From Minisyncoccota bacterium (lineage in GTDB: Bacteria > Patescibacteriota > Minisyncoccia > SW-4-49-11): DNA of 64,000 nucleotides. The stretch covers positions 2,532 through 66,531 of the forward strand of contig JAULZW010000006.1 in assembly GCA_032117235.1 (NCBI GenBank). The letters are read 5' to 3'. Made by a program: the position numbers and the translations under genes. Of this stretch, positions 6,527 through 60,739 are shown piece by piece. Position 1 is the first letter of the stretch. The number at the start of each line of letters is the position of its first letter. The notes under the pieces are model-generated. The model ran no database searches, was not told where the DNA came from, and saw only the letters and a list, made by a program, of their open reading frames with translations.

Positions 6527-7156
6527 TTACCTCATACCTAAATATTTCAAAATTTCTAAAATCAATACCCAACCTCCAGAGATGAGAATAGTAAAATAGA
6601 TTATAGTAATTAGATTAAAGATATGCCCCCAGATTATACTAATTCCATCCTTTTGTAATAATCCAATAGCATAGAATAACAAAGCAATGGCAGGAAAAGT
6701 GTTGCTAAAAGGAATAAATCCAAAAGGTGCCATTAATAAGATAGCTGCTAATATAATAGATAGGCCATTAATAATATGGGCTCCATGCCCAGCGGTAATC
6801 CAAATTGCTCTATGCGGTTTACTTATCTTTTCTAAACGAATAAACCACTTTAATCCAGCTGAAAAAGCTTTTCTCAGAGCCGAGGCAGGCAACTCTCTTC
6901 TTAAGAAGCTTTTTGGTAACCATAAATCCCAACCGAATAAAATACTAACTCCAATCAATAAAATTGTCCCTCCAAAAACTGTACTCACTCCAGGAATTGA
7001 TACAGGAATTAGAAACACTACAGTTAATAAAACTACTAATAATAACATTCCATCTCGACCTAAAATATCTCTAATTTCAGCTAAAGTCAATTTATCCTGA
7101 GGTAACTCAGCAATAATTGTTTCTAATTTTTCTCGAATGGGAATATTTTCTTGCAT
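6527..7156 (-). CDS. ExoD-family membrane protein (exopolysaccharide synthesis ExoD-like)
   Basis: 209 aa. The N-terminal 'LTLAEIRDILGRDGMLLLVVLLTVVFLIPVSIPGVSTVFG...WLPKSFLRREL' matches the ExoD family pattern. Several TM helices follow. Confidence 0.6.
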   Translation of the reverse strand: MQENIPIREKLETIIAELPQDKLTLAEIRDILGRDGMLLLVVLLTVVFLIPVSIPGVSTVFGGTILLIGVSILFGWDLWLPKSFLRRELPASALRKAFSAGLKWFIRLEKISKPHRAIWITAGHGAHIINGLSIILAAILLMAPFGFIPFSNTFPAIALLFYAIGLLQKDGISIIWGHIFNLITIIYFTILISGGWVLILEILKYLGMR

Positions 7157-9600: not shown

Positions 9601-9629
9601 TTGTACAGATAGGGGAAATGGGGTAGAAT
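9601..9629 (+). promoter_or_regulatory. Conserved promoter cassette, copy 2 (TTGTAC-N17-TAGAAT)
   Basis: TTGTAC at 9601-9606, spacer AGATAGGGGAAATGGGG, TAGAAT at 9624-9629. The -10 element overlaps the first ATG of the downstream ORF, which suggests a leaderless transcript starting near the ATG at 9637. Confidence 0.5.
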
Positions 9630-9636
9630 GAATATT

Positions 9637-10281
9637 ATGAATAAAAATATTATCATCATTGGATTAGGTCCTAAATTAGGATTTGCTATGGCAAAAAAGT
9701 TTGGGGAGAATGGATTTGTAGTTGGTCTTATTAGTCGTAATGAAATTATGTTAAAGGAGCGGGCTATTTTGTTGCAAGAGCAAGGAATTAGTGTTTTTTA
9801 TCATACAGCTAATGTATATGATAAGGATGAACTTGAGACAGCTATCTCGTTTTTGAAGAATGAAATGGGTATTATAGATGTTTTGTTTTATAATGCTGCA
9901 GGTATGAAAAGGAAAAACCTATTATCTGAAGAAACTGATGATCTCGTGAATGATTTTCGATTAAATGTTGCTCATGTATTTCATTCGGTACAATATCTTT
10001 TGGATGATTTACGACAAACAAAGGGAGCGGTATTATTAACGGGGGGAGGATTTTCGCTCAACCCTAATCATGAATTTGGGTCATTGTCATTGGGTAAGGC
10101 TGGACTAAGAAATTTAGCACTTCAATTGAATGAAGCCTTAAAAGAGGATGATATTTATGTAGGGACGCTCACTATTAATGGGCATATTCAGGTAGAGAGT
10201 AATCTCTATTCACCGTCTATATTAGCTAATATGTTTTGGGAGATGTATATGAGTAGAATAGATACAGAGATAAGATATTAG
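9637..10281 (+). CDS. SDR-like (short-chain dehydrogenase fold) protein
   Basis: N-terminal Rossmann motif 'IIIIGLGPKLGFAMAKKF', then 'YNAAG' and 'GKAGLRNL'. The canonical YxxxK Tyr is not obvious. The alternative start is 9628. Confidence 0.55.
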   Translation: MNKNIIIIGLGPKLGFAMAKKFGENGFVVGLISRNEIMLKERAILLQEQGISVFYHTANVYDKDELETAISFLKNEMGIIDVLFYNAAGMKRKNLLSEETDDLVNDFRLNVAHVFHSVQYLLDDLRQTKGAVLLTGGGFSLNPNHEFGSLSLGKAGLRNLALQLNEALKEDDIYVGTLTINGHIQVESNLYSPSILANMFWEMYMSRIDTEIRY

Positions 10282-10317
10282 GTTTGATATTCTGCTAAAG
10301 TTAATGATTTAGCTATA

Positions 10318-10761
10318 TTAAGTCTCTTTCGTTTTCATAGATAACATAAATAAAAGAATAGATAAAATAATAAACACATAATTCCCTATACCTCCTGGGG
10401 CGACACCTGTGAGGGTAAGGGGTTTGAAAAATCCAAGTATAAGTCTGAGACTATATTCAGTAAAGACAAACAGATACATAAGGGGGATAAGAGCTTTGTA
10501 GCGAATTGTGATGATGAGAAACACTATTCCAAGCAGTAGTTGAGAAATTCCCCATAATCCAAACATAAAAATAACCGTATTAGCACTTTCTACAGAATAG
10601 GTATCGAGTGGAATAGTGGCTATACTTTGTGCTCCACCATCAGGGGCTAATATATGAATTAGACTTCGGACTATAGTTATAAAGATGATAATATAAAAAG
10701 TATAGAGAGCAATAGGATGTCCAGTATAGGTGTTATTTATTTGTTTTGGGAAAATATGCAT
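10318..10761 (-). CDS. Hypothetical polytopic membrane protein
   Basis: 147 aa with about four hydrophobic helices and no recognisable motif. Confidence 0.4.
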   Translation of the reverse strand: MHIFPKQINNTYTGHPIALYTFYIIIFITIVRSLIHILAPDGGAQSIATIPLDTYSVESANTVIFMFGLWGISQLLLGIVFLIITIRYKALIPLMYLFVFTEYSLRLILGFFKPLTLTGVAPGGIGNYVFIILSILLFMLSMKTKET

Positions 10762-11366
10762 ATGCTATTATTTTATCTATATTATATCATAGATGAATAA
10801 AAATGCGGAATAATATGCCTGTCTTATGATTTAATGTAAACTATCAATAATCATAAGTTTGATAGGACTTATTACAGTAAAGAGTCAAATTCTGTATAGA
10901 GACTTTTTATTGTAGAAATAATGTGGTCTTGAGATTTTATTATATCTATATTCTGATTTATTGCATCTGCTATTTATTGGGTAAACCCTGTACCTATAAC
11001 GAATTGAGATACGGACTCTTTATTTGGTTTTTGGCTGAAATATTCCTGAAGTAGTGTATGCCATTTACGAATATCATATTCACTAAGTCCATACTCTATC
11101 TCAGAGGACAATACATCTTGTAAATATTCAATATATGAATATAGTATTTCGTCTTCCAAAAATTTTAATGATTGAGTAATATATGGGGATTCAGGACATA
11201 GTGAATATATCTTATTATCAATAATATATTACTCCCTTACTTTGTCTACAATAGAATGAAATTTTACTCCCGCTAAAAATCTAGTGTTGTCTCACCTATT
11301 TCTAGTTCTCCATTTTTTACATATAATACGTTATATCCATAAGTGATTATGAGTTTTCTTATTTAT

Positions 11367-11570
11367 TTATACTCCAAAACTATACCCCTCCTCAGGTTGC
11401 CAAATATGCCCACATTGCTCACAAAGATGTTTTTTGTGGAGTCTTTTTGACCAATCATCTCTATCAATATGATGCAATCCACATTCAGGGCAATTTATAT
11501 CATTGCGAATAGAGAAGCTCCCAATAATTACTGAATTGCTTGGTTGGGGTTCTTGCTCTTGATTGCTCAT
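11367..11570 (-). CDS. Small zinc-ribbon protein (two CxxC pairs)
   Basis: 67 aa with 'CPECG...HLCEQCGH'. Coding status is uncertain. Confidence 0.35.
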   Translation of the reverse strand: MSNQEQEPQPSNSVIIGSFSIRNDINCPECGLHHIDRDDWSKRLHKKHLCEQCGHIWQPEEGYSFGV

Positions 11571-11615
11571 AATACAATTTACTAAATATTTATTGATTTA
11601 ACTATAACATACTTT

Positions 11616-11817
11616 TGCCCCCCTTCGGAGGGGGTGCCTGAAAGGTAGACTGTAAGTCTGGGAAAGGGGTCGGGAAAACGGGAGTTTTCCCGTGAAGGAA
11701 GGTTGGGAAACCGTGAGGTTTCACAGAAGCAAATCCTATTTGCGACGGGGGCGGATAAAATACAAACTTAAACTCTATCCACCTCCGGCCTGACGGCCAC
11801 CTCCTCCAAAGGAGGAT
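11616..11817. repeat. Full copy (modules A+B) of a GC-rich hairpin-dense element; candidate structured ncRNA or miniature mobile element
   Basis: Consecutive perfect hairpins: CCCCCC-ttcg-GAGGGGG, GGGAAAAC-ggga-GTTTTCCC, GAAACC-gtga-GGTTTC, GCAAAT-cct-ATTTGC, GGATA..TATCC, GGCC-tgac-GGCC and CCTCC-aaa-GGAGG. Module A recurs at 12548-12618 and module B at 38051-38156. Confidence 0.5.
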
Positions 11818-11888
11818 AGTTTTTGTAATAAGCTATGGTCGGTAGTCTAATAATATATAGTAATCTTTTTTGTCTACGATCTCTTCTA

Positions 11889-11917
11889 TTGTACGGATAG
11901 GAGAAATGGGTTAGAAT
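11889..11917 (+). promoter_or_regulatory. Conserved promoter cassette, copy 3 (TTGTAC-N17-TAGAAT)
   Basis: TTGTAC at 11889-11894, spacer GGATAGGAGAAATGGGT, TAGAAT at 11912-11917, upstream of the 11949 CDS. Confidence 0.45.
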
Positions 11918-11948
11918 TAGTTTTATAATATAGCAAAAAACACTTAAT

Positions 11949-12236
11949 ATGGAAGCAATAATAGGAGCTTTAAGCACATTTAATCCACTTATTGCGCTAC
12001 TAATTCTAGTAGCATATATTGTTATAGATGCACTTTATGCAAAGTATACCTTAGATATTGCCAATTATAATGAATATAGAGCTGCTACTGTTGGTTCAAT
12101 TATACACTTTTGTATTGCATTTGGAGTAATTAATTATACTGAAAACTGGCTTTATATTTTCCCCCTTGCTATTGGATCATGGATTGGAACTTTTTTGATG
12201 GTAAAAAGAGAGCGTCTCAAGAAAAAGAAAGAGTAA
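11949..12236 (+). CDS. Small hypothetical membrane protein
   Basis: 95 aa with two or three TM helices and a Lys-rich C-terminus. It is preceded by promoter cassette copy 3. Confidence 0.4.
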   Translation: MEAIIGALSTFNPLIALLILVAYIVIDALYAKYTLDIANYNEYRAATVGSIIHFCIAFGVINYTENWLYIFPLAIGSWIGTFLMVKRERLKKKKE

Positions 12237-12377
12237 CTGTGTATCTCTAGAATTATAGGCTATATATAATGTAAATTATTTATAATTATAAATCTATAAT
12301 CACTTTATACCTTTTGAATAAGAATAAGTTGCAAAATTATGAAAATTTAGGTATACTAAAATAGTTAATTTAATTAT

Positions 12378-12468
12378 GGAGAGATGGCTGAGCTGGTCGA
12401 AAGCACCACACTGCTAACGTGGCATAGGGTAAAACTTATCAAGGGTTCGAATCCCTTTCTCTCCGCCA
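12378..12468 (+). tRNA. tRNA-Ser (anticodon GCT), type II with a long variable arm and an encoded CCA
   Basis: Acceptor GGAGAGA/TCTCTCC, anticodon loop CTGCTAA, variable arm ATAGG..CTTAT, T-arm AGGG-TTCGAAT-CCCT, discriminator G, then CCA. Confidence 0.9.
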
Positions 12469-12496
12469 AAATTAAGAATAGGGATAATATCCCGAC

Positions 12497-12648
12497 CTTT
12501 AATTTATGGGAGTTAGTAAAAAGGGATTCGAATCCAGGGAAGGGGGCGGGAAACGGGAGTTTCCCGTGGAGGATGTATTGAAACCGAGTGGTTTCAAGGA
12601 GCAAATCCCATTTGCGACAGGTTCGTAATCCCTTTCTCTCCGCCAAAA
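12497..12648 (+). repeat. Degenerate tandem copy of tRNA-Ser (pseudo-tRNA) whose middle is occupied by module A of the GC-rich hairpin element. It ends in a near-exact 28-nt repeat of the tRNA-Ser 3' end.
   Basis: The upstream context and 5' segment ('taatttatgggag') echo the true tRNA ('taattatggagag'). 12620-12648 ('ggttcgtaatccctttctctccgccaaaa') repeats the true 3' end with one indel. 12548-12618 is module A. Confidence 0.5.
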
Positions 12649-12681: not shown

Positions 12682-13443
12682 ATGAAACTTATATCATTAA
12701 ATACATGGGGTGGTCGAGCAGGGAAGGAAAATCTTCTTGAGTTTTTTAAGGCTTATAAAGATGTAGATATTTTTTGTTTACAGGAAATTTGGGCTGCTCC
12801 ATATGAAAATCTAGAATATGACTCTGTTAGTGGATTTAGTATTGATGATGATTATGCTAAATTTTATATTCAAGAAGTTGTAGATTTGATAACAACTCAT
12901 ACAGCATATTTTAGACCACAATATTCTGATTATTGGGGCCTGATGATATTAATCAAAAAAGATATAAATGTAATTTCAGAGGGGGAGCTTTTCGTCCATA
13001 AAGAAAAGGACTATATTCCTGAAGGAGATATTGGATTACATGCACGAAATATACAATTTGCGACAATTGCAACTCCGAATGGGCACAGGTCTATTATCAA
13101 TTTTCATGGATTATGGAATGGTAAAGGAAAAGGGGATAGCGAAGATAGACTATTACAATCAGATAAAATAATTGAGTTTATACAAACTTTAGCTAATCCA
13201 TATATTATAGCTTGAGATTTTAATCTATTGCCGGATACTCAGAGTATTAAAAAGTTTGAGGACTTGGGACTGAATAATCTCATCAAAGAATATAATATTA
13301 CTTCAACACGTACGAGTTTTTATACTAAGCCCGAAAAATTTGCCGATTATGTGTTTACCGATAAAGATATTACTATAAAAGACTTTAAGGTATTACCTGA
13401 TGAGGTATCTGATCATAGTGCTTTGTATTTGGAATTTGAATAA
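12682..13443 (+). pseudogene. Endonuclease/exonuclease/phosphatase (EEP) family protein interrupted by an in-frame TGA at 13213-13215
   Basis: ORFs 12682-13215 and 13228-13443 share a frame. The sequence reads 'PYIIA*DFNLLPD', so the stop sits where the EEP 'GDFN' Gly is expected. The C-terminus has 'SDHSALY', as in the EEP family. Confidence 0.6.
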
Positions 13444-36074: not shown

Positions 36075-37052
36075 CTAAAATAAACTTGGTACTTTAATTT
36101 TATTATCTAATCTTTTTTCTGCAATTTTAAAATAATCTTGATCAAGTTCATATCCTATAAATTTTCTTTTTAACTCTATACAAGCCACTCCTGTTGACCC
36201 ACTTCCCATAAAAGGGTCTAAAATAATATGTTCATCGAATGTTATTAGTTTTACTAAATGGTGCATCAATTCAATAGGTTTTAGTGTGGGGTGAAAATTA
36301 AAATCTTCTTTATTTTGTCTTACTTTTGGTACTAAAAAAAATTTATCATATCCATCTTTAAATTCATCAGTTCTTATTATATTTGCTGGAACTCTACCTT
36401 TTTCGTGGGGGTTATGTCCTACTTTACCTTCATTTTCAGCATAAGGTAGTCTTGTATTTTCAAAATTTAATGCTCCAGTACCATATTTAATTATATTTTG
36501 AGCAACATTTAAACCTTTTTCTAAGGGCTTTTGTATTAAAATGATTGGTTCATATGCTGGCTTTAATCCTAATCCTGCCCCATTATATCTTTTACCCAAT
36601 TCTGAAATAGGAGATAATTTATGTTTCTCACCTACTTTATAATTATCAGCACCATTTTTTTTATATCCTTGAACATATTTATATCGTCCAACTTTTTTAC
36701 TTTCAATATTAAGTTCTGAATCTATCAACAAGCCAACATTTCTACTTTTTGGCATTCCATTTAAATAAGACCAAAATAATACATCTTTGATTAAAAAGCC
36801 ACTATCTTCTAAATCAACCATTAACCTATGCATTAATCTAACAGAACTAAAAACCAAACCAAAACCACCTGGTTTAATTTTTTTAAAACTATTATTCCAT
36901 ATTTCTTTACTGGGTAAATCTTTATCCCAATAATTATTTTGGTATGAAATACCATAAGGAGGATCAGTTATTATTGAATCAATATAATTATCCTCTATAT
37001 CTTCTAGTAAATATGAGTTTTTATTATAAATTTGAAACATGTTAAACATCAT
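36075..37052 (-). CDS. DNA methyltransferase (beta-class N6-adenine / N4-cytosine; motif IV precedes motif I)
   Basis: 'IITDPPYGISY' (motif IV) is followed near the C-terminus by 'ILDPFMGSGSTGVAC' (motif I). Confidence 0.85.
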   Translation of the reverse strand: MMFNMFQIYNKNSYLLEDIEDNYIDSIITDPPYGISYQNNYWDKDLPSKEIWNNSFKKIKPGGFGLVFSSVRLMHRLMVDLEDSGFLIKDVLFWSYLNGMPKSRNVGLLIDSELNIESKKVGRYKYVQGYKKNGADNYKVGEKHKLSPISELGKRYNGAGLGLKPAYEPIILIQKPLEKGLNVAQNIIKYGTGALNFENTRLPYAENEGKVGHNPHEKGRVPANIIRTDEFKDGYDKFFLVPKVRQNKEDFNFHPTLKPIELMHHLVKLITFDEHIILDPFMGSGSTGVACIELKRKFIGYELDQDYFKIAEKRLDNKIKVPSLF

Positions 37053-37662
37053 TAATGCTCAAAATATCATCTATTGTTAAATATTTTGATATATTTCTTT
37101 TATAATTTATTAATAATTTATATACAAAATCTTTTTTCTTATCTGGTGGAACAATAACATTAAATTTATACTCTTGAATCATTTTTTCTATTCCAATATT
37201 TTGGGTTGAGCGAGTACTTGTATTGGCAACAGCTTTTACTCTTTCCAGTAAATATTTCCCTAAAGCTACATGTTGCCCATATATAATAAATTGTAAATCT
37301 ACAGCTCCTTTCCATACTCCAACAGCTGTAAACAATCTTTTATCACTAAAAGCTATAGCTTTTTCTTCACTTGTATCATTCCATGTTCCACCCAATCTTT
37401 TAGAAAAAACACTACATTGTTTTACCTCAAGAAATTTACCAGTTTTTGAGCTCTTACCGTCAAAGCCATGTTTATTGAAATTTAACAAATCATATCCTAA
37501 ATAATTACCAACAATAGAATCTCTTATTTCATTTATTGTTGTATCAGTATCATAAGACTTAAATTCATTTTGAAATTTAGTTAATTCTTCTAATGCAAGA
37601 ATTCCTTTCGTTCTAAAGGAATATGGGATTGGTCTATAATCACCTTTTTTAAAAATATTCAT
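37042..37662 (-). CDS. Candidate restriction endonuclease (PD-(D/E)xK-like) partner of the methyltransferase
   Basis: It overlaps the MTase start by 11 nt. 'HGFDGKSSKTGKFLEVKQ' gives a D...E-V-K arrangement. The tracked ORF extends to 37716, but that part overlaps a tRNA-derived repeat, so the Met at 37662 is preferred. Confidence 0.45.
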   Translation of the reverse strand: MNIFKKGDYRPIPYSFRTKGILALEELTKFQNEFKSYDTDTTINEIRDSIVGNYLGYDLLNFNKHGFDGKSSKTGKFLEVKQCSVFSKRLGGTWNDTSEEKAIAFSDKRLFTAVGVWKGAVDLQFIIYGQHVALGKYLLERVKAVANTSTRSTQNIGIEKMIQEYKFNVIVPPDKKKDFVYKLLINYKRNISKYLTIDDILSINDV

Positions 37663-37692
37663 AATATTTTTTAGTATACATAAAACAATTTG

Positions 37693-37711
37693 GCGGAAGT
37701 GAGAGGATTCG
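37693..37711 (-). repeat. 19-nt direct repeat of the tRNA-Ser(TGA) 3' end (att-like)
   Basis: 'gcggaagtgagaggattcg' at 37693-37711 matches 37899-37917. The roughly 190-bp interval between the copies has acceptor-like pairing (GAAGTGA...TCACTTCC), like a degraded tRNA copy. Confidence 0.6.
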
Positions 37712-37899
37712 GTCACAAGTAATTTTCCTGACGGAAAATTCTCGCGACCCCGTCTCGCTGTGTTCGCCTTGTGCTTCGCACAAACTCACACTGGGCTGCG
37801 ACTTTCTCATCCCCACGGGAGCAATGCTATTGCTCTCTGTCACTTCTTCAAATATTATTTTTATCTTTTGGCATAAATACCAAAAGATAAAAATATATG

Positions 37900-37986
37900 C
37901 GGAAGTGAGAGGATTCGAACCTCTGGTAGGGGTAAACCTACAACAGTTTTCAAGACTGCCGCCTTCAACCGCTCAGCCACACTTCC
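37900..37986 (-). tRNA. tRNA-Ser (anticodon TGA), type II
   Basis: Minus-strand read: GGAAGTG acceptor, anticodon loop CTTGAAA, long variable arm, T-arm AGAGG-TTCGAAT-CCTCT, discriminator G. Confidence 0.9.
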
Positions 37987-38050
37987 ATTTATAAAATTTA
38001 TTATATCATATTTATGCACTTTTGTACATACTATATATAGAGTCTTAAAA

Positions 38051-38156
38051 TTCCCCTCTTGAGGGGTGTACAGCTTTGCTGGACGGGGTGGATAAAACAT
38101 AAACTAAAACTATATCCACCTCCGGCACTCCGTGCCACCTCCTCCAAAGGAGGACA
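38051..38156. repeat. Partial copy (module B) of the GC-rich hairpin element
   Basis: CCCCTC-tt-GAGGGG, GGATAAAA...TATCC, GGCAC-tcc-GTGCC (compensatory versus GGCC-tgac-GGCC at 11.8 kb) and CCTCC-aaa-GGAGG. It abuts the 5' side of tRNA-Ser(TGA). Confidence 0.45.
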
Positions 38157-38238
38157 ATGTTTTATACTAATTTGTTATTAGATTATTATATTAGATATAA
38201 AGTATGCTATAATATTCATAGAATTTAATATAAAATTT

Positions 38239-60385: not shown

Positions 60386-60713
60386 CCAATAAGAATGGTA
60401 ATCGCGCATATCCATTTTATGGTGAGTGAGGAAAGTCTGGACACCTGTTGCTTAAAAACAATAAATGATAGTGGGTAACACCCATCCTTAAGTTTACTTA
60501 AGCGGGATAAGTATCGCAGAGACAAAACATTTGAGTATAACTCATCTAAGGTGAAAAGAGATAAACCCTATCAGGTGCAAGGCCGTGCTTTTCTTAATTG
60601 AAAAGAGTGCCGCCAAGAAAGTGCTGGTAACAGTACTTCAAGATAAATGATTACCTTAAGTATTATTGCTAGACAATATGCTTAAACAGAATCCAGCTTA
60701 TATTCTTTATTGG
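60386..60713 (+). ncRNA. rnpB: RNase P RNA (bacterial type, reduced size)
   Basis: P4 strands 'GAGGAAAGTCTGGAC' and 'ACAGAATCCAGCTTA'. P1 pairs CCAATAAGAATGG with ATTCTTTATTGG. A TATAAT -10 lies at 60371-60376. Confidence 0.8.
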
Positions 60714-60739
60714 GTACTATATATCACCAATATAATAAT

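Follow-up and report, generated by a model that had tools for sequence, protein, structure and literature searches.

GC-rich hairpin chains in a 64-kb Patescibacteria contig are probably degenerate copies of a lineage-specific non-coding mobile repeat

Introduction

Is a chain of GC-rich hairpins in an AT-rich bacterial genome an RNA gene, the leader of its neighbour, a recombination site or a piece of mobile DNA? The question is raised by positions 11616-11817 of a 64,000-nucleotide stretch of contig JAULZW010000006.1 from a Minisyncoccota bacterium, hereafter the window. The initial annotation of the locus described a modular element in three copies, made of perfect hairpins in a genome of roughly 30% GC, with a selected structure that is either an RNA or a protein-bound palindrome. 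The GC-rich hairpin chain is indeed there, with 51-59% GC locally at the hairpin elements compared with 31.8% for the whole 64 kb.

We use four names: E1 (11596-11894), E2 or copy 2 (12508-12648), E3 (38050-38200) and E4 (37690-37850, minus strand). E4 is a fourth GC-rich structured element that the inventory of three copies did not list. Besides the tRNAs, the non-coding islands above 50% GC are 11594-11826, 12376-12644, 37686-37990 and 38052-38160. We find that E1 and E3 are probably degenerate, immobile copies of a lineage-specific, non-coding family of mobile repeats of the MITE kind (miniature inverted-repeat transposable elements) in Patescibacteria of the Paceibacteria/Parcubacteria type. 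E2 and E4 are linked to tRNA genes and are treated separately.

A dispersed and modular family

Within the window, BLAST recovers the 3' half of the chain at 38050-38156 and its middle part at 12536-12618, in agreement with the initial annotation. Positions 11748-11816 match 38085-38154 with 85.7% identity over 70 nt (E=3e-9), and 11707-11746 match 12580-12618 with 87.5% identity over 40 nt (E=0.003), accompanied by a collinear 12-mer. The motif pair CCACCTCC..CCACCTCCTCC occurs twice in the window and in none of 100 shuffles. A covariance model of the core scores 100 bits at E3 and 68 bits at E1 and detects no further core copies in the window.

For the metagenome scan we used a specific pattern spanning the hairpins P3-P5 (Table 1). 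A loose pattern, CCACCTCC-N(8-20)-CCACCTCCTCC, had matched more than 120 viral contigs, all in coding low-complexity repeats and none resembling the element, and stricter patterns were used instead. The scan returned 94 stretches, with about 100 true copies and a dozen coding false positives, mostly from lake samples and often with several copies per contig. Metagenome contig loci fetched as flanks and relatives are numbered L121-L279, and the flanks total about 1.1 Mb. The exact core pattern is present in about 8 out of 185,579 species-representative genomes. Nearly all of these are Patescibacteria, labelled Paceibacteria or Parcubacteria; two are labelled Saccharibacteria and one is a Smithella bin (label taken as given). 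Three metagenome-assembled genomes contain about 20, about 21 and 10 exact-pattern copies. Rather than a discrete functional RNA in three copies, this is a dispersed, modular, multi-copy family, one subfamily of which has terminal inverted repeats and a 5-bp duplication.

The basic core is about 105 nt long; some copies have module A, roughly 100 nt, inserted at P2 in addition. In copies of the CCC-GUA-GGG type, module A is located within the P2 loop. It consists of four hairpins, two of them with GNRA loops.

About 7% of the 123 cores with a unique context are found in arrays. In locus L162 the core forms a tandem array with a period of 135 nt, 9.9 copies and 94% matches; such arrays do not contain the terminal repeats. 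The L162 array (9938-11264) and three more copies at 6560-7040 bracket a large restriction-modification gene on the opposite strand. A second hairpin module, GTAGGGGCGACCTTTCAGTCGCCTGTG with its complement, stands inverted around about 20% of the cores (for instance L135:1690-1720, L200:60-140, L136 and L190) and possibly represents another mobile frame. The neighbourhoods of the copies are crowded with more GC-rich palindromes, which occur in either orientation.

A 272-bp frame inserted at -35 hexamers

The intact unit is about 272 bp long and consists of AT-rich arms around the GC-rich core, in which five palindromes (P1-P5) follow one another. The unit begins with GAATAAGATGAGATGCATCGTAGACAAG on the left and finishes with ..GTCGACGATTACCTCATCTCGTACAA on the right. 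Conservation extends about 95 nt upstream and about 75 nt downstream of the core and is then followed by abrupt divergence. The terminal inverted repeats are imperfect and 28 bp long; the consensus ends match in inverted orientation at 20 out of 27 positions. Among 27 unique copies with both ends, the modal length is 270-273 bp and 16 measure 270-279 bp. Identical 5-bp flanking repeats are found in 15 of these 27 copies; the corresponding numbers are 0 for shifted registers and about 1 for permuted pairs. A 65-bp deletion derivative in L140 (2200-2264) contains only the two ends, has its own 5-bp duplication (GACCT) and lies directly upstream of TTGACA-N17-TATAAT.

The target site is NNNNT|TGACAA: a T closes the duplicated pentamer, and TGACAA comes next. 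This sets the element directly against the -35 box of promoters of the sigma-70 type. At this fixed position, 22 out of 46 unique right flanks match TTGACA in at least five of six bases (background 0.6%), and 12 out of 46 match perfectly (background 0.03%). In 21 of the 22 flanks a -10-like hexamer follows 16-18 nt further on. The orientation of the element to the promoter is constant, and the site falls after the stop of one gene and ahead of the promoter of the following gene. Across copies, the genes downstream show no relationship to each other; they are usually on the same strand as the element.

The family unit is shorter than 500 bp and carries no gene. Among the features by which a MITE is recognised, small size and lack of open reading frames (ORFs), terminal inverted repeats, a duplication of fixed length and many copies per genome are found in the family. 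In the roughly 1.1 Mb of fetched flanks of core matches we found no transposase or autonomous element, no inverted pairs of MITE ends more than 450 bp apart and no multi-copy ORF resembling a transposase; among the proteins encoded near the copies, the largest cluster is pilin-like. A DDE-type transposase acting in trans would move the element.

Conserved hairpins in a symmetric element

The fold energies of the window elements are below those of shuffled sequences, with z = -2.8 for E1, -4.8 for E3 and -3.7 for E2. Most hairpins are perfect, as had been noted, except that P3 of E1 has one C.A mismatch, GGCGGATA versus GGTGGATA in relatives. The exchange of the GGCC-TGAC-GGCC stem for GGCAC-TCC-GTGCC was correctly described and is one case among many. 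At least seven versions of the P4 stem exist across copies, all of them palindromic, including GGCAC/GUGCC, GGCC/GGCC, GCCC/GGGC, GCCCC/GGGGC, GGCACC/GGUGCC and the 11-bp GGUCCCUCCUA/UAGGAGGGACC; a minority of copies have a single mismatch. P2 is swapped wholesale for at least four unrelated hairpins, and the P1 stem reads CUCCCU/AGGGAG in other copies, a change from U-A to C-G. The P3 loop varies between copies in sequence and in length, from about 18 to 60 nt. That the hairpins are maintained while their sequence changes supports a selected hairpin, not specifically an RNA.

The reason for this restriction is the symmetry of the element. P1 resembles the reverse complement of P5 and P2 that of P4, with P3 in the centre. 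When the entire unit of 273 bp is aligned to its reverse complement, the score is 58, versus 2.2 +/- 15.5 for shuffles, and the core model matches both strands, with 100 and 50 bits at E3 and 68 and 40 bits at E1. Since the core is dyad-symmetric and both strands fold alike, the conservation of stems does not distinguish RNA from folded DNA. The selected structure proposed initially is therefore retained, and its specificity for RNA is not. The same symmetry removes the anti-Shine-Dalgarno/Shine-Dalgarno pair read into P5 (CCTCC-aaa-GGAGG): because P5 mirrors P1, this hairpin is simply the mirror image of P1, it is not located at a translation start, and the downstream promoters lie after the element.

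No known RNA family was recognised, in line with the initial annotation. With Rfam 15 only four tRNAs and RNase P pass in the window, and with the limit raised to E = 10 the best matches on E1-E4 are noise (E>0.4). For full copies in L145, L178, L198 and L182 the scan detected nothing but tRNAs, and no tmRNA was identified by ARAGORN. After four negative Rfam scans we rejected tmRNA, RNase P-like RNAs and riboswitches as candidates.

Two likenesses to 16S rRNA should be mentioned. In subfamily a (e.g. L145:3401-3413), GTACCCGTAGGGG agrees with the 3'-terminal helix region of 16S rRNA at 12 out of 13 bases, with p of about 0.005 by shuffling against a 16S consensus; the match is absent from subfamily b and may be coincidence. 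P3 and P5 both contain CACCUCC, which resembles the 16S tail, possibly also by coincidence.

Could the core be a family of small structured RNA genes, i.e. trans-acting small RNAs (sRNAs) that, for example, expose or sequester CCUCC/GGAGG and mimic the 16S 3' end or the Shine-Dalgarno sequence, with the terminal-repeat frame as one route of spreading? We consider this quite unlikely. The retention of hairpins through sequence replacement fits such genes, but the dyad symmetry and the matches of the model to both strands do not favour RNA. P3 has an invariant G.U pair on the plus strand; at P4, however, A.C-type mismatches on the plus strand are more numerous than G.U. E3 is preceded by a promoter-like site (38023-38051) and its P5 is terminator-like, yet promoter-like matches are at chance level (6 found versus 2.5 +/- 1.7 expected), P5 with its T-run scores as terminator-like in E1 and E3 only, and the consensus element has neither an internal promoter-like site in the left arm nor a hairpin followed by a T-run. 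The RNA-like loops (UUCG/UNGG, GGGA, GUGA) also fit an RNA, as does the confinement of insertions to loops (P2 receives module A, and in L255 the loop of P1 holds an additional hairpin), whereas 20 near-identical copies and tandem arrays are atypical of a regulatory sRNA.

The copies in the window

The features of the window that bear on the four elements are listed in Table 1.

Table 1. Positions of the hairpin elements and their immediate neighbours in the window.
Feature	Position	Strand	Remark
Zinc-ribbon gene	11367-11570	-	Adjoins left side of E1
E1, diverged left-arm remnant (AT-rich)	11596-11617	+	Alignment to full-length copies L178 and L201
E1, P1	11618-11634	+	CCCCCU-UCGG-AGGGGG
E1, P2	11636-11646	+	GCCU-GAA-AGGU; module A directly after
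E1, module A, optional insert of about 100 nt	11647-11746	+	In some copies, not in basic 272-bp form; hairpins 11647-11659, 11671-11692 (GGGA loop), 11704-11725 (GUGA loop), 11729-11743; 3' end GCGAC
E1, P3	11747-11786	+	GGGGGCGGAUA paired with UAUCCACCUCC; AU-rich loop
E1, P4	11787-11798	+	GGCC-UGAC-GGCC
E1, P5	11799-11816	+	CCUCCUCC-AAA-GGAGGA, then TAGTTTTTG; mirror of P1; terminator-like score
E1, right arm (AT-rich) with truncated right terminal inverted repeat	11817-11894	+	..TTTTGTCTACGATCTCTTCTATTGTAC
Promoter-like site of 95-aa membrane-protein gene cassette	11889-11917	+	TTGTAC-N17-TAGAAT; interrupts end of E1
tRNA-Ser(gct)	12378-12468	+	
E2, tRNA-linked structured body	12508-12619	+	5' frame GGGAG..AGGGAUUCGAAUCCAGGGAAGGG, module A hairpins, ends UUUGCGAC
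Duplicate of tRNA-Ser(gct) 3' part	12620-12648	+	T-loop to CCA plus 3-4 nt; T-loop 8-nt variant TTCGTAAT
Duplicate of tRNA-Ser(tga) 3' part	37690-37712	-	From T-loop C56 to CCA
E4, different GC-rich structured body	37713-37850	-	Directly downstream of tRNA-Ser(tga); fold z = -7.8
tRNA-Ser(tga)	37899-37986	-	
E3, basic core without module A	38050-38156	+	Orthologues in L209 and L255; core model 100 bits
E3, P1	38053-38066	+	
E3, P2	38071-38081	+	
E3, P3	38085-38123	+	
E3, P4	38124-38136	+	
E3, P5	38138-38155	+	
E3, diverged right-arm remnant	38157-38200	+	No recognisable terminal inverted repeat

E1 can be aligned to full-length copies with module A; the alignment begins in the inner left arm and reaches the right terminal repeat, so that E1 extends past 11616-11817 and its right arm ends at about 11894. 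On the left, E1 lacks the terminal inverted repeat together with about 45 nt of the arm, and the zinc-ribbon gene starts in their place. The right terminal repeat is broken by a gene cassette in this genome only and is intact in the relative L123. In L123 (about 96% identical here) the genes run zinc-ribbon gene, E1, tRNA-Ser(gct) and copy 2, with the 95-aa gene elsewhere; the intact right end of E1 abuts TAAGT|TGCAAA-N17-TATAAT, the promoter of tRNA-Ser. L122 has neither E1 nor E2 at tRNA-Ser(gct), in a region that is rearranged. In E3 the core and the inner arms are recognisable and both terminal repeats are gone. It occupies the same position in L209 and L255, between tRNA-Ser(tga) and a VIT-family gene. 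The E3 orthologue in L255 (1380-1500) has an extra hairpin, UCCC-UGC-GGGA, in the P1 loop, a case of growth by loop insertion. Only spurious short ORFs overlap E1 and E3, and a small ORF after GGAGG (ATG at 38158) was ruled out by indels there among relatives.

The cassette at the broken right end of E1 is 410 bp long (11889-12299) and comprises the promoter TTGTAC-N17-TAGAAT and the gene of a 95-aa membrane protein. In two close relatives (L122:2941-3352, L123:2874-3277) it is flanked by genes for a dCMP deaminase and an SDR protein. A second copy of its 43-nt promoter stretch is present at 9601-9643, ahead of an SDR gene. The protein family occurs in Falkowbacteria, Moranbacteria and other Patescibacteria.

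It is very unlikely that the hairpin modules are recombination sites, i.e. attC-like or integrase att-like folded DNA that shuffles cassettes and small elements. Such a role would agree with the position of the cassette exactly at the broken end of E1 here and elsewhere in relatives, with the restriction-modification gene between the 10-unit array and the three further copies in L162, and with the direct repeats of tRNA 3' parts that flank module A and E4 (see below), as in integrated elements. However, no integrase was detected beside any copy, cassette-like arrangements are few, and 5-bp duplications with terminal inverted repeats are signatures of a transposase and not of site-specific recombination.

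A cis-acting leader of the downstream gene (riboswitch, thermometer or attenuator), with 5'/3' pairing as the alternative to the CCUCC-AAA-GGAGG hairpin, is already refuted for practical purposes: the minimum-free-energy fold of E1 does pair GGAGGGGGUG with CACCUCCUCC in place of the local hairpins, P5 with its T-run is terminator-like in both window copies and the downstream gene is usually on the same strand, but 83-130 nt separate GGAGG from the start codons, the genes downstream have no relation to one another and their -35/-10 promoters lie past the element, and no constant position upstream of related genes is found. E1 as the leader of the 95-aa gene was rejected in particular, as close homologues of that gene have other genes and no element upstream, and in L123 E1 adjoins tRNA-Ser instead.

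Structured bodies behind tRNA genes

The two tRNA-Ser genes are present as initially described, and the adjacency of the partial copies to them has to be divided. For copy 2 the adjacency is meaningful; it is followed by a duplicate of the tRNA 3' end. For copy 3 (E3) it results from insertion between the divergent tRNA-Ser(tga) and VIT-family genes. Copy 2 reuses module A in another vehicle, a structured body after a tRNA gene plus a duplicate of the tRNA 3' part. The 3' end of tRNA-Ser(gct) is repeated exactly over 19 nt at 12627-12645 (2 copies versus 0.02 expected in the window), and that of tRNA-Ser(tga) over 18 nt (2 copies versus 0 expected in the window).

E4 has the same layout with a different body. 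Bodies of the E4 type, 83-88% identical, follow tRNA-Lys, tRNA-Gln and tRNA-Leu genes elsewhere, each with the 3' part of that tRNA. Their last bases are ..GTGAC, or ..GGAATGG in the case of Lys; the 3' part of the local tRNA comes next, and the 3' repeat in these loci ranges from 19 to more than 53 nt and sometimes reaches into the trailer. In the relative L255 tRNA-Ser(tga) is present without E4; this is a clean empty site, the only one found, and the homology with L255 stops at 37887.

We surveyed 85 tRNA genes in the window and the fetched loci. Among these, 13 out of 85 (Ser, Lys, Gln, Leu and Arg) are followed by a body and a duplicate of their own 3' end, with a body of either the E4 type or the module A type. 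The inserts are 120-270 nt long, with no ORF and no integrase inside. The four Ser-linked cases share the frame AGAUUCGAAYUCAGGGAAGG..[variable]..GGAGCAAAUCCCAUUUGCGACRRGUUCGUAAUC, after which the 3' strand of the local tRNA begins. This frame shows compensatory changes (GCAAAU/AUUUGC versus GUGAAU/AUUCAC), and the 8-nt T-loop variant TTCGTAAT is common to the Ser-linked cases. In several bodies the tRNA 3' strand finds a complement near the 5' end; the window has GAAGUGAcAGAG/CUCUcACUUC, L248 has UGCAGGGA/UCCCUGCA and L246 has GGAGAGA/UCUCUCC. This complementarity would close a transcript into a tRNA-like acceptor/T minihelix with a large insert.

Possible origins of these bodies are miniature integrative elements, insertion at a staggered cut or partial tandem duplication. 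Reverse transcription of mature tRNA was rejected as a general source of the 3' duplicates, as several of them continue into the gene trailer. The layout partly recalls genomic islands integrated in tRNA genes, with an intact tRNA gene, foreign DNA and a direct repeat of the 3' part from the T-loop, of variable length. The direct 3'-part repeat is found for both copy 2 and E4, and an encoded integrase for neither. The inserts differ from islands in their length of only 120-270 nt, in having no integrase or ORF, in being highly structured, in the occurrence of the same body at different tRNA species with that tRNA's own 3' part, and in the 5' complementarity of some bodies to the 3' part. It is conceivable, although unlikely, that they form a new class of ORF-less structured elements that stand after tRNA genes and end in the 3' strand of the tRNA, either mobile by a mechanism that duplicates a target stretch of variable length or acting as tRNA-mimicking RNAs. 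If mobile, RNA-guided or Cas1-like staggered integration are candidate mechanisms, as are miniature integrative elements served in trans; as RNAs, they might undergo processing or charging as tRNAs do. Of all parts of the locus, these tRNA-linked bodies have the best prospect of containing something new.

Directly after the tRNA-Ser(tga) duplicate, the region 36075-37716 (-) encodes an N4/N6 DNA methylase (PF01555) and a 224-aa ORF without a Pfam match, and looks like a restriction-modification island. At 12682-13215 and 13228-13443 (+), two ORFs correspond to the N- and C-terminal parts of one endonuclease/exonuclease/phosphatase domain, and the gene appears to be split by a frameshift or stop. 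The RNase P RNA of the window (60386-60717, +, 125.9 bits) is of bacterial class A, with peripheral helices shortened or missing compared with the model.

Discussion

Several observations weigh against the assignment of E1 and E3 to a MITE family. Neither of the two copies has intact ends, and no autonomous element or transposase with the ends of the family turned up in the flanks searched. Among the 123 cores with a unique context, about one third have terminal repeats, another hairpin module (GTAGGGGCGACC.. and its complement) stands beside about 20%, and about 35% belong to none of the frames. The search for copy variation that keeps the stems gives a divided result: stems are retained by replacement, and formal covariation is weak, with double changes in 3 out of 26 pairs, largely due to one subfamily split, and with P3 and P5 fixed by the search pattern, so that covariation there is limited by ascertainment. 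Finally, the consensus element has no hairpin with a T-run, and a role as insulator or terminator is something we infer. The MITE frame accounts for part of the spread of the family, not for all of it. Given the modules outside the terminal-repeat frame and the palindrome-rich surroundings, the family also resembles the REP/BIME or BOX mosaics.

Correia elements in Neisseria and RUP in Streptococcus pneumoniae are bacterial MITEs. In their general features they are like the element described here: short, ORF-less and multi-copy, with terminal inverted repeats and a target-site duplication, intergenic, able to fold back into a hairpin over the whole element and to affect neighbouring transcription. 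They differ in that the ends are unrelated in sequence, the duplication here is 5 bp and not TA, the core here is GC-rich and modular with exchangeable palindromes in a 32% GC genome, the insertion here is at the -35 hexamer in fixed orientation, the host belongs to the Patescibacteria lineage, and no partner transposase was found in the flanks searched. BOX in S. pneumoniae and REP/BIME in enterobacteria share with the family a modular build with optional or repeated internal modules, alternating palindromic units, an extragenic position and a stable structure when transcribed. Short imperfect palindromes in alternating orientation outside genes, as in REP/BIME, are found here as well. The movement of REPs is attributed to RAYT (Y1) transposases, and REPs are not known to have terminal inverted repeats or target-site duplications, whereas one subfamily here has both; the module sequences are unrelated to those of BOX and REP. 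A MITE of Porphyromonas gingivalis is reported to contain a minisatellite, and its interior can expand as tandem repeats (PMC4596501). The arrays found here, with their 135-nt period, differ in consisting of the core without terminal repeats.

A search of the literature on MITEs in the candidate phyla radiation (CPR) yielded nothing relevant and no description of this family. The modular, symmetric GC-rich core and the insertion directed to the -35 hexamer, uncommon for a bacterial MITE, are unusual traits, and the element is best filed as a lineage-restricted addition to the known kinds of bacterial MITEs and palindromic repeats. In such a mobile repeat the hairpins may persist as a unit of propagation and tolerance, with the symmetric stack folding the element back on itself. 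The foldback structure would help transposition. When transcribed from either side, the stack may act as a barrier, a terminator-like insulator between transcription units, which would render insertions next to promoters harmless.

Patescibacteria are ultra-small bacteria whose genomes, about 1 Mb in size, are usually called streamlined. Repeats with at least 20 copies per genome, arrays and nested modules are mobile non-coding DNA that shapes their intergenic space. Through its placement at the -35 hexamer the element offers direct access to the promoter architecture of unculturable organisms. The family also calls for caution in annotation, as GC-rich hairpin islands in AT-rich CPR genomes are often repeats and not novel RNA genes. 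The tRNA-linked elements, if they are truly mobile or functional, would represent a new use of tRNA genes as landing sites or templates.

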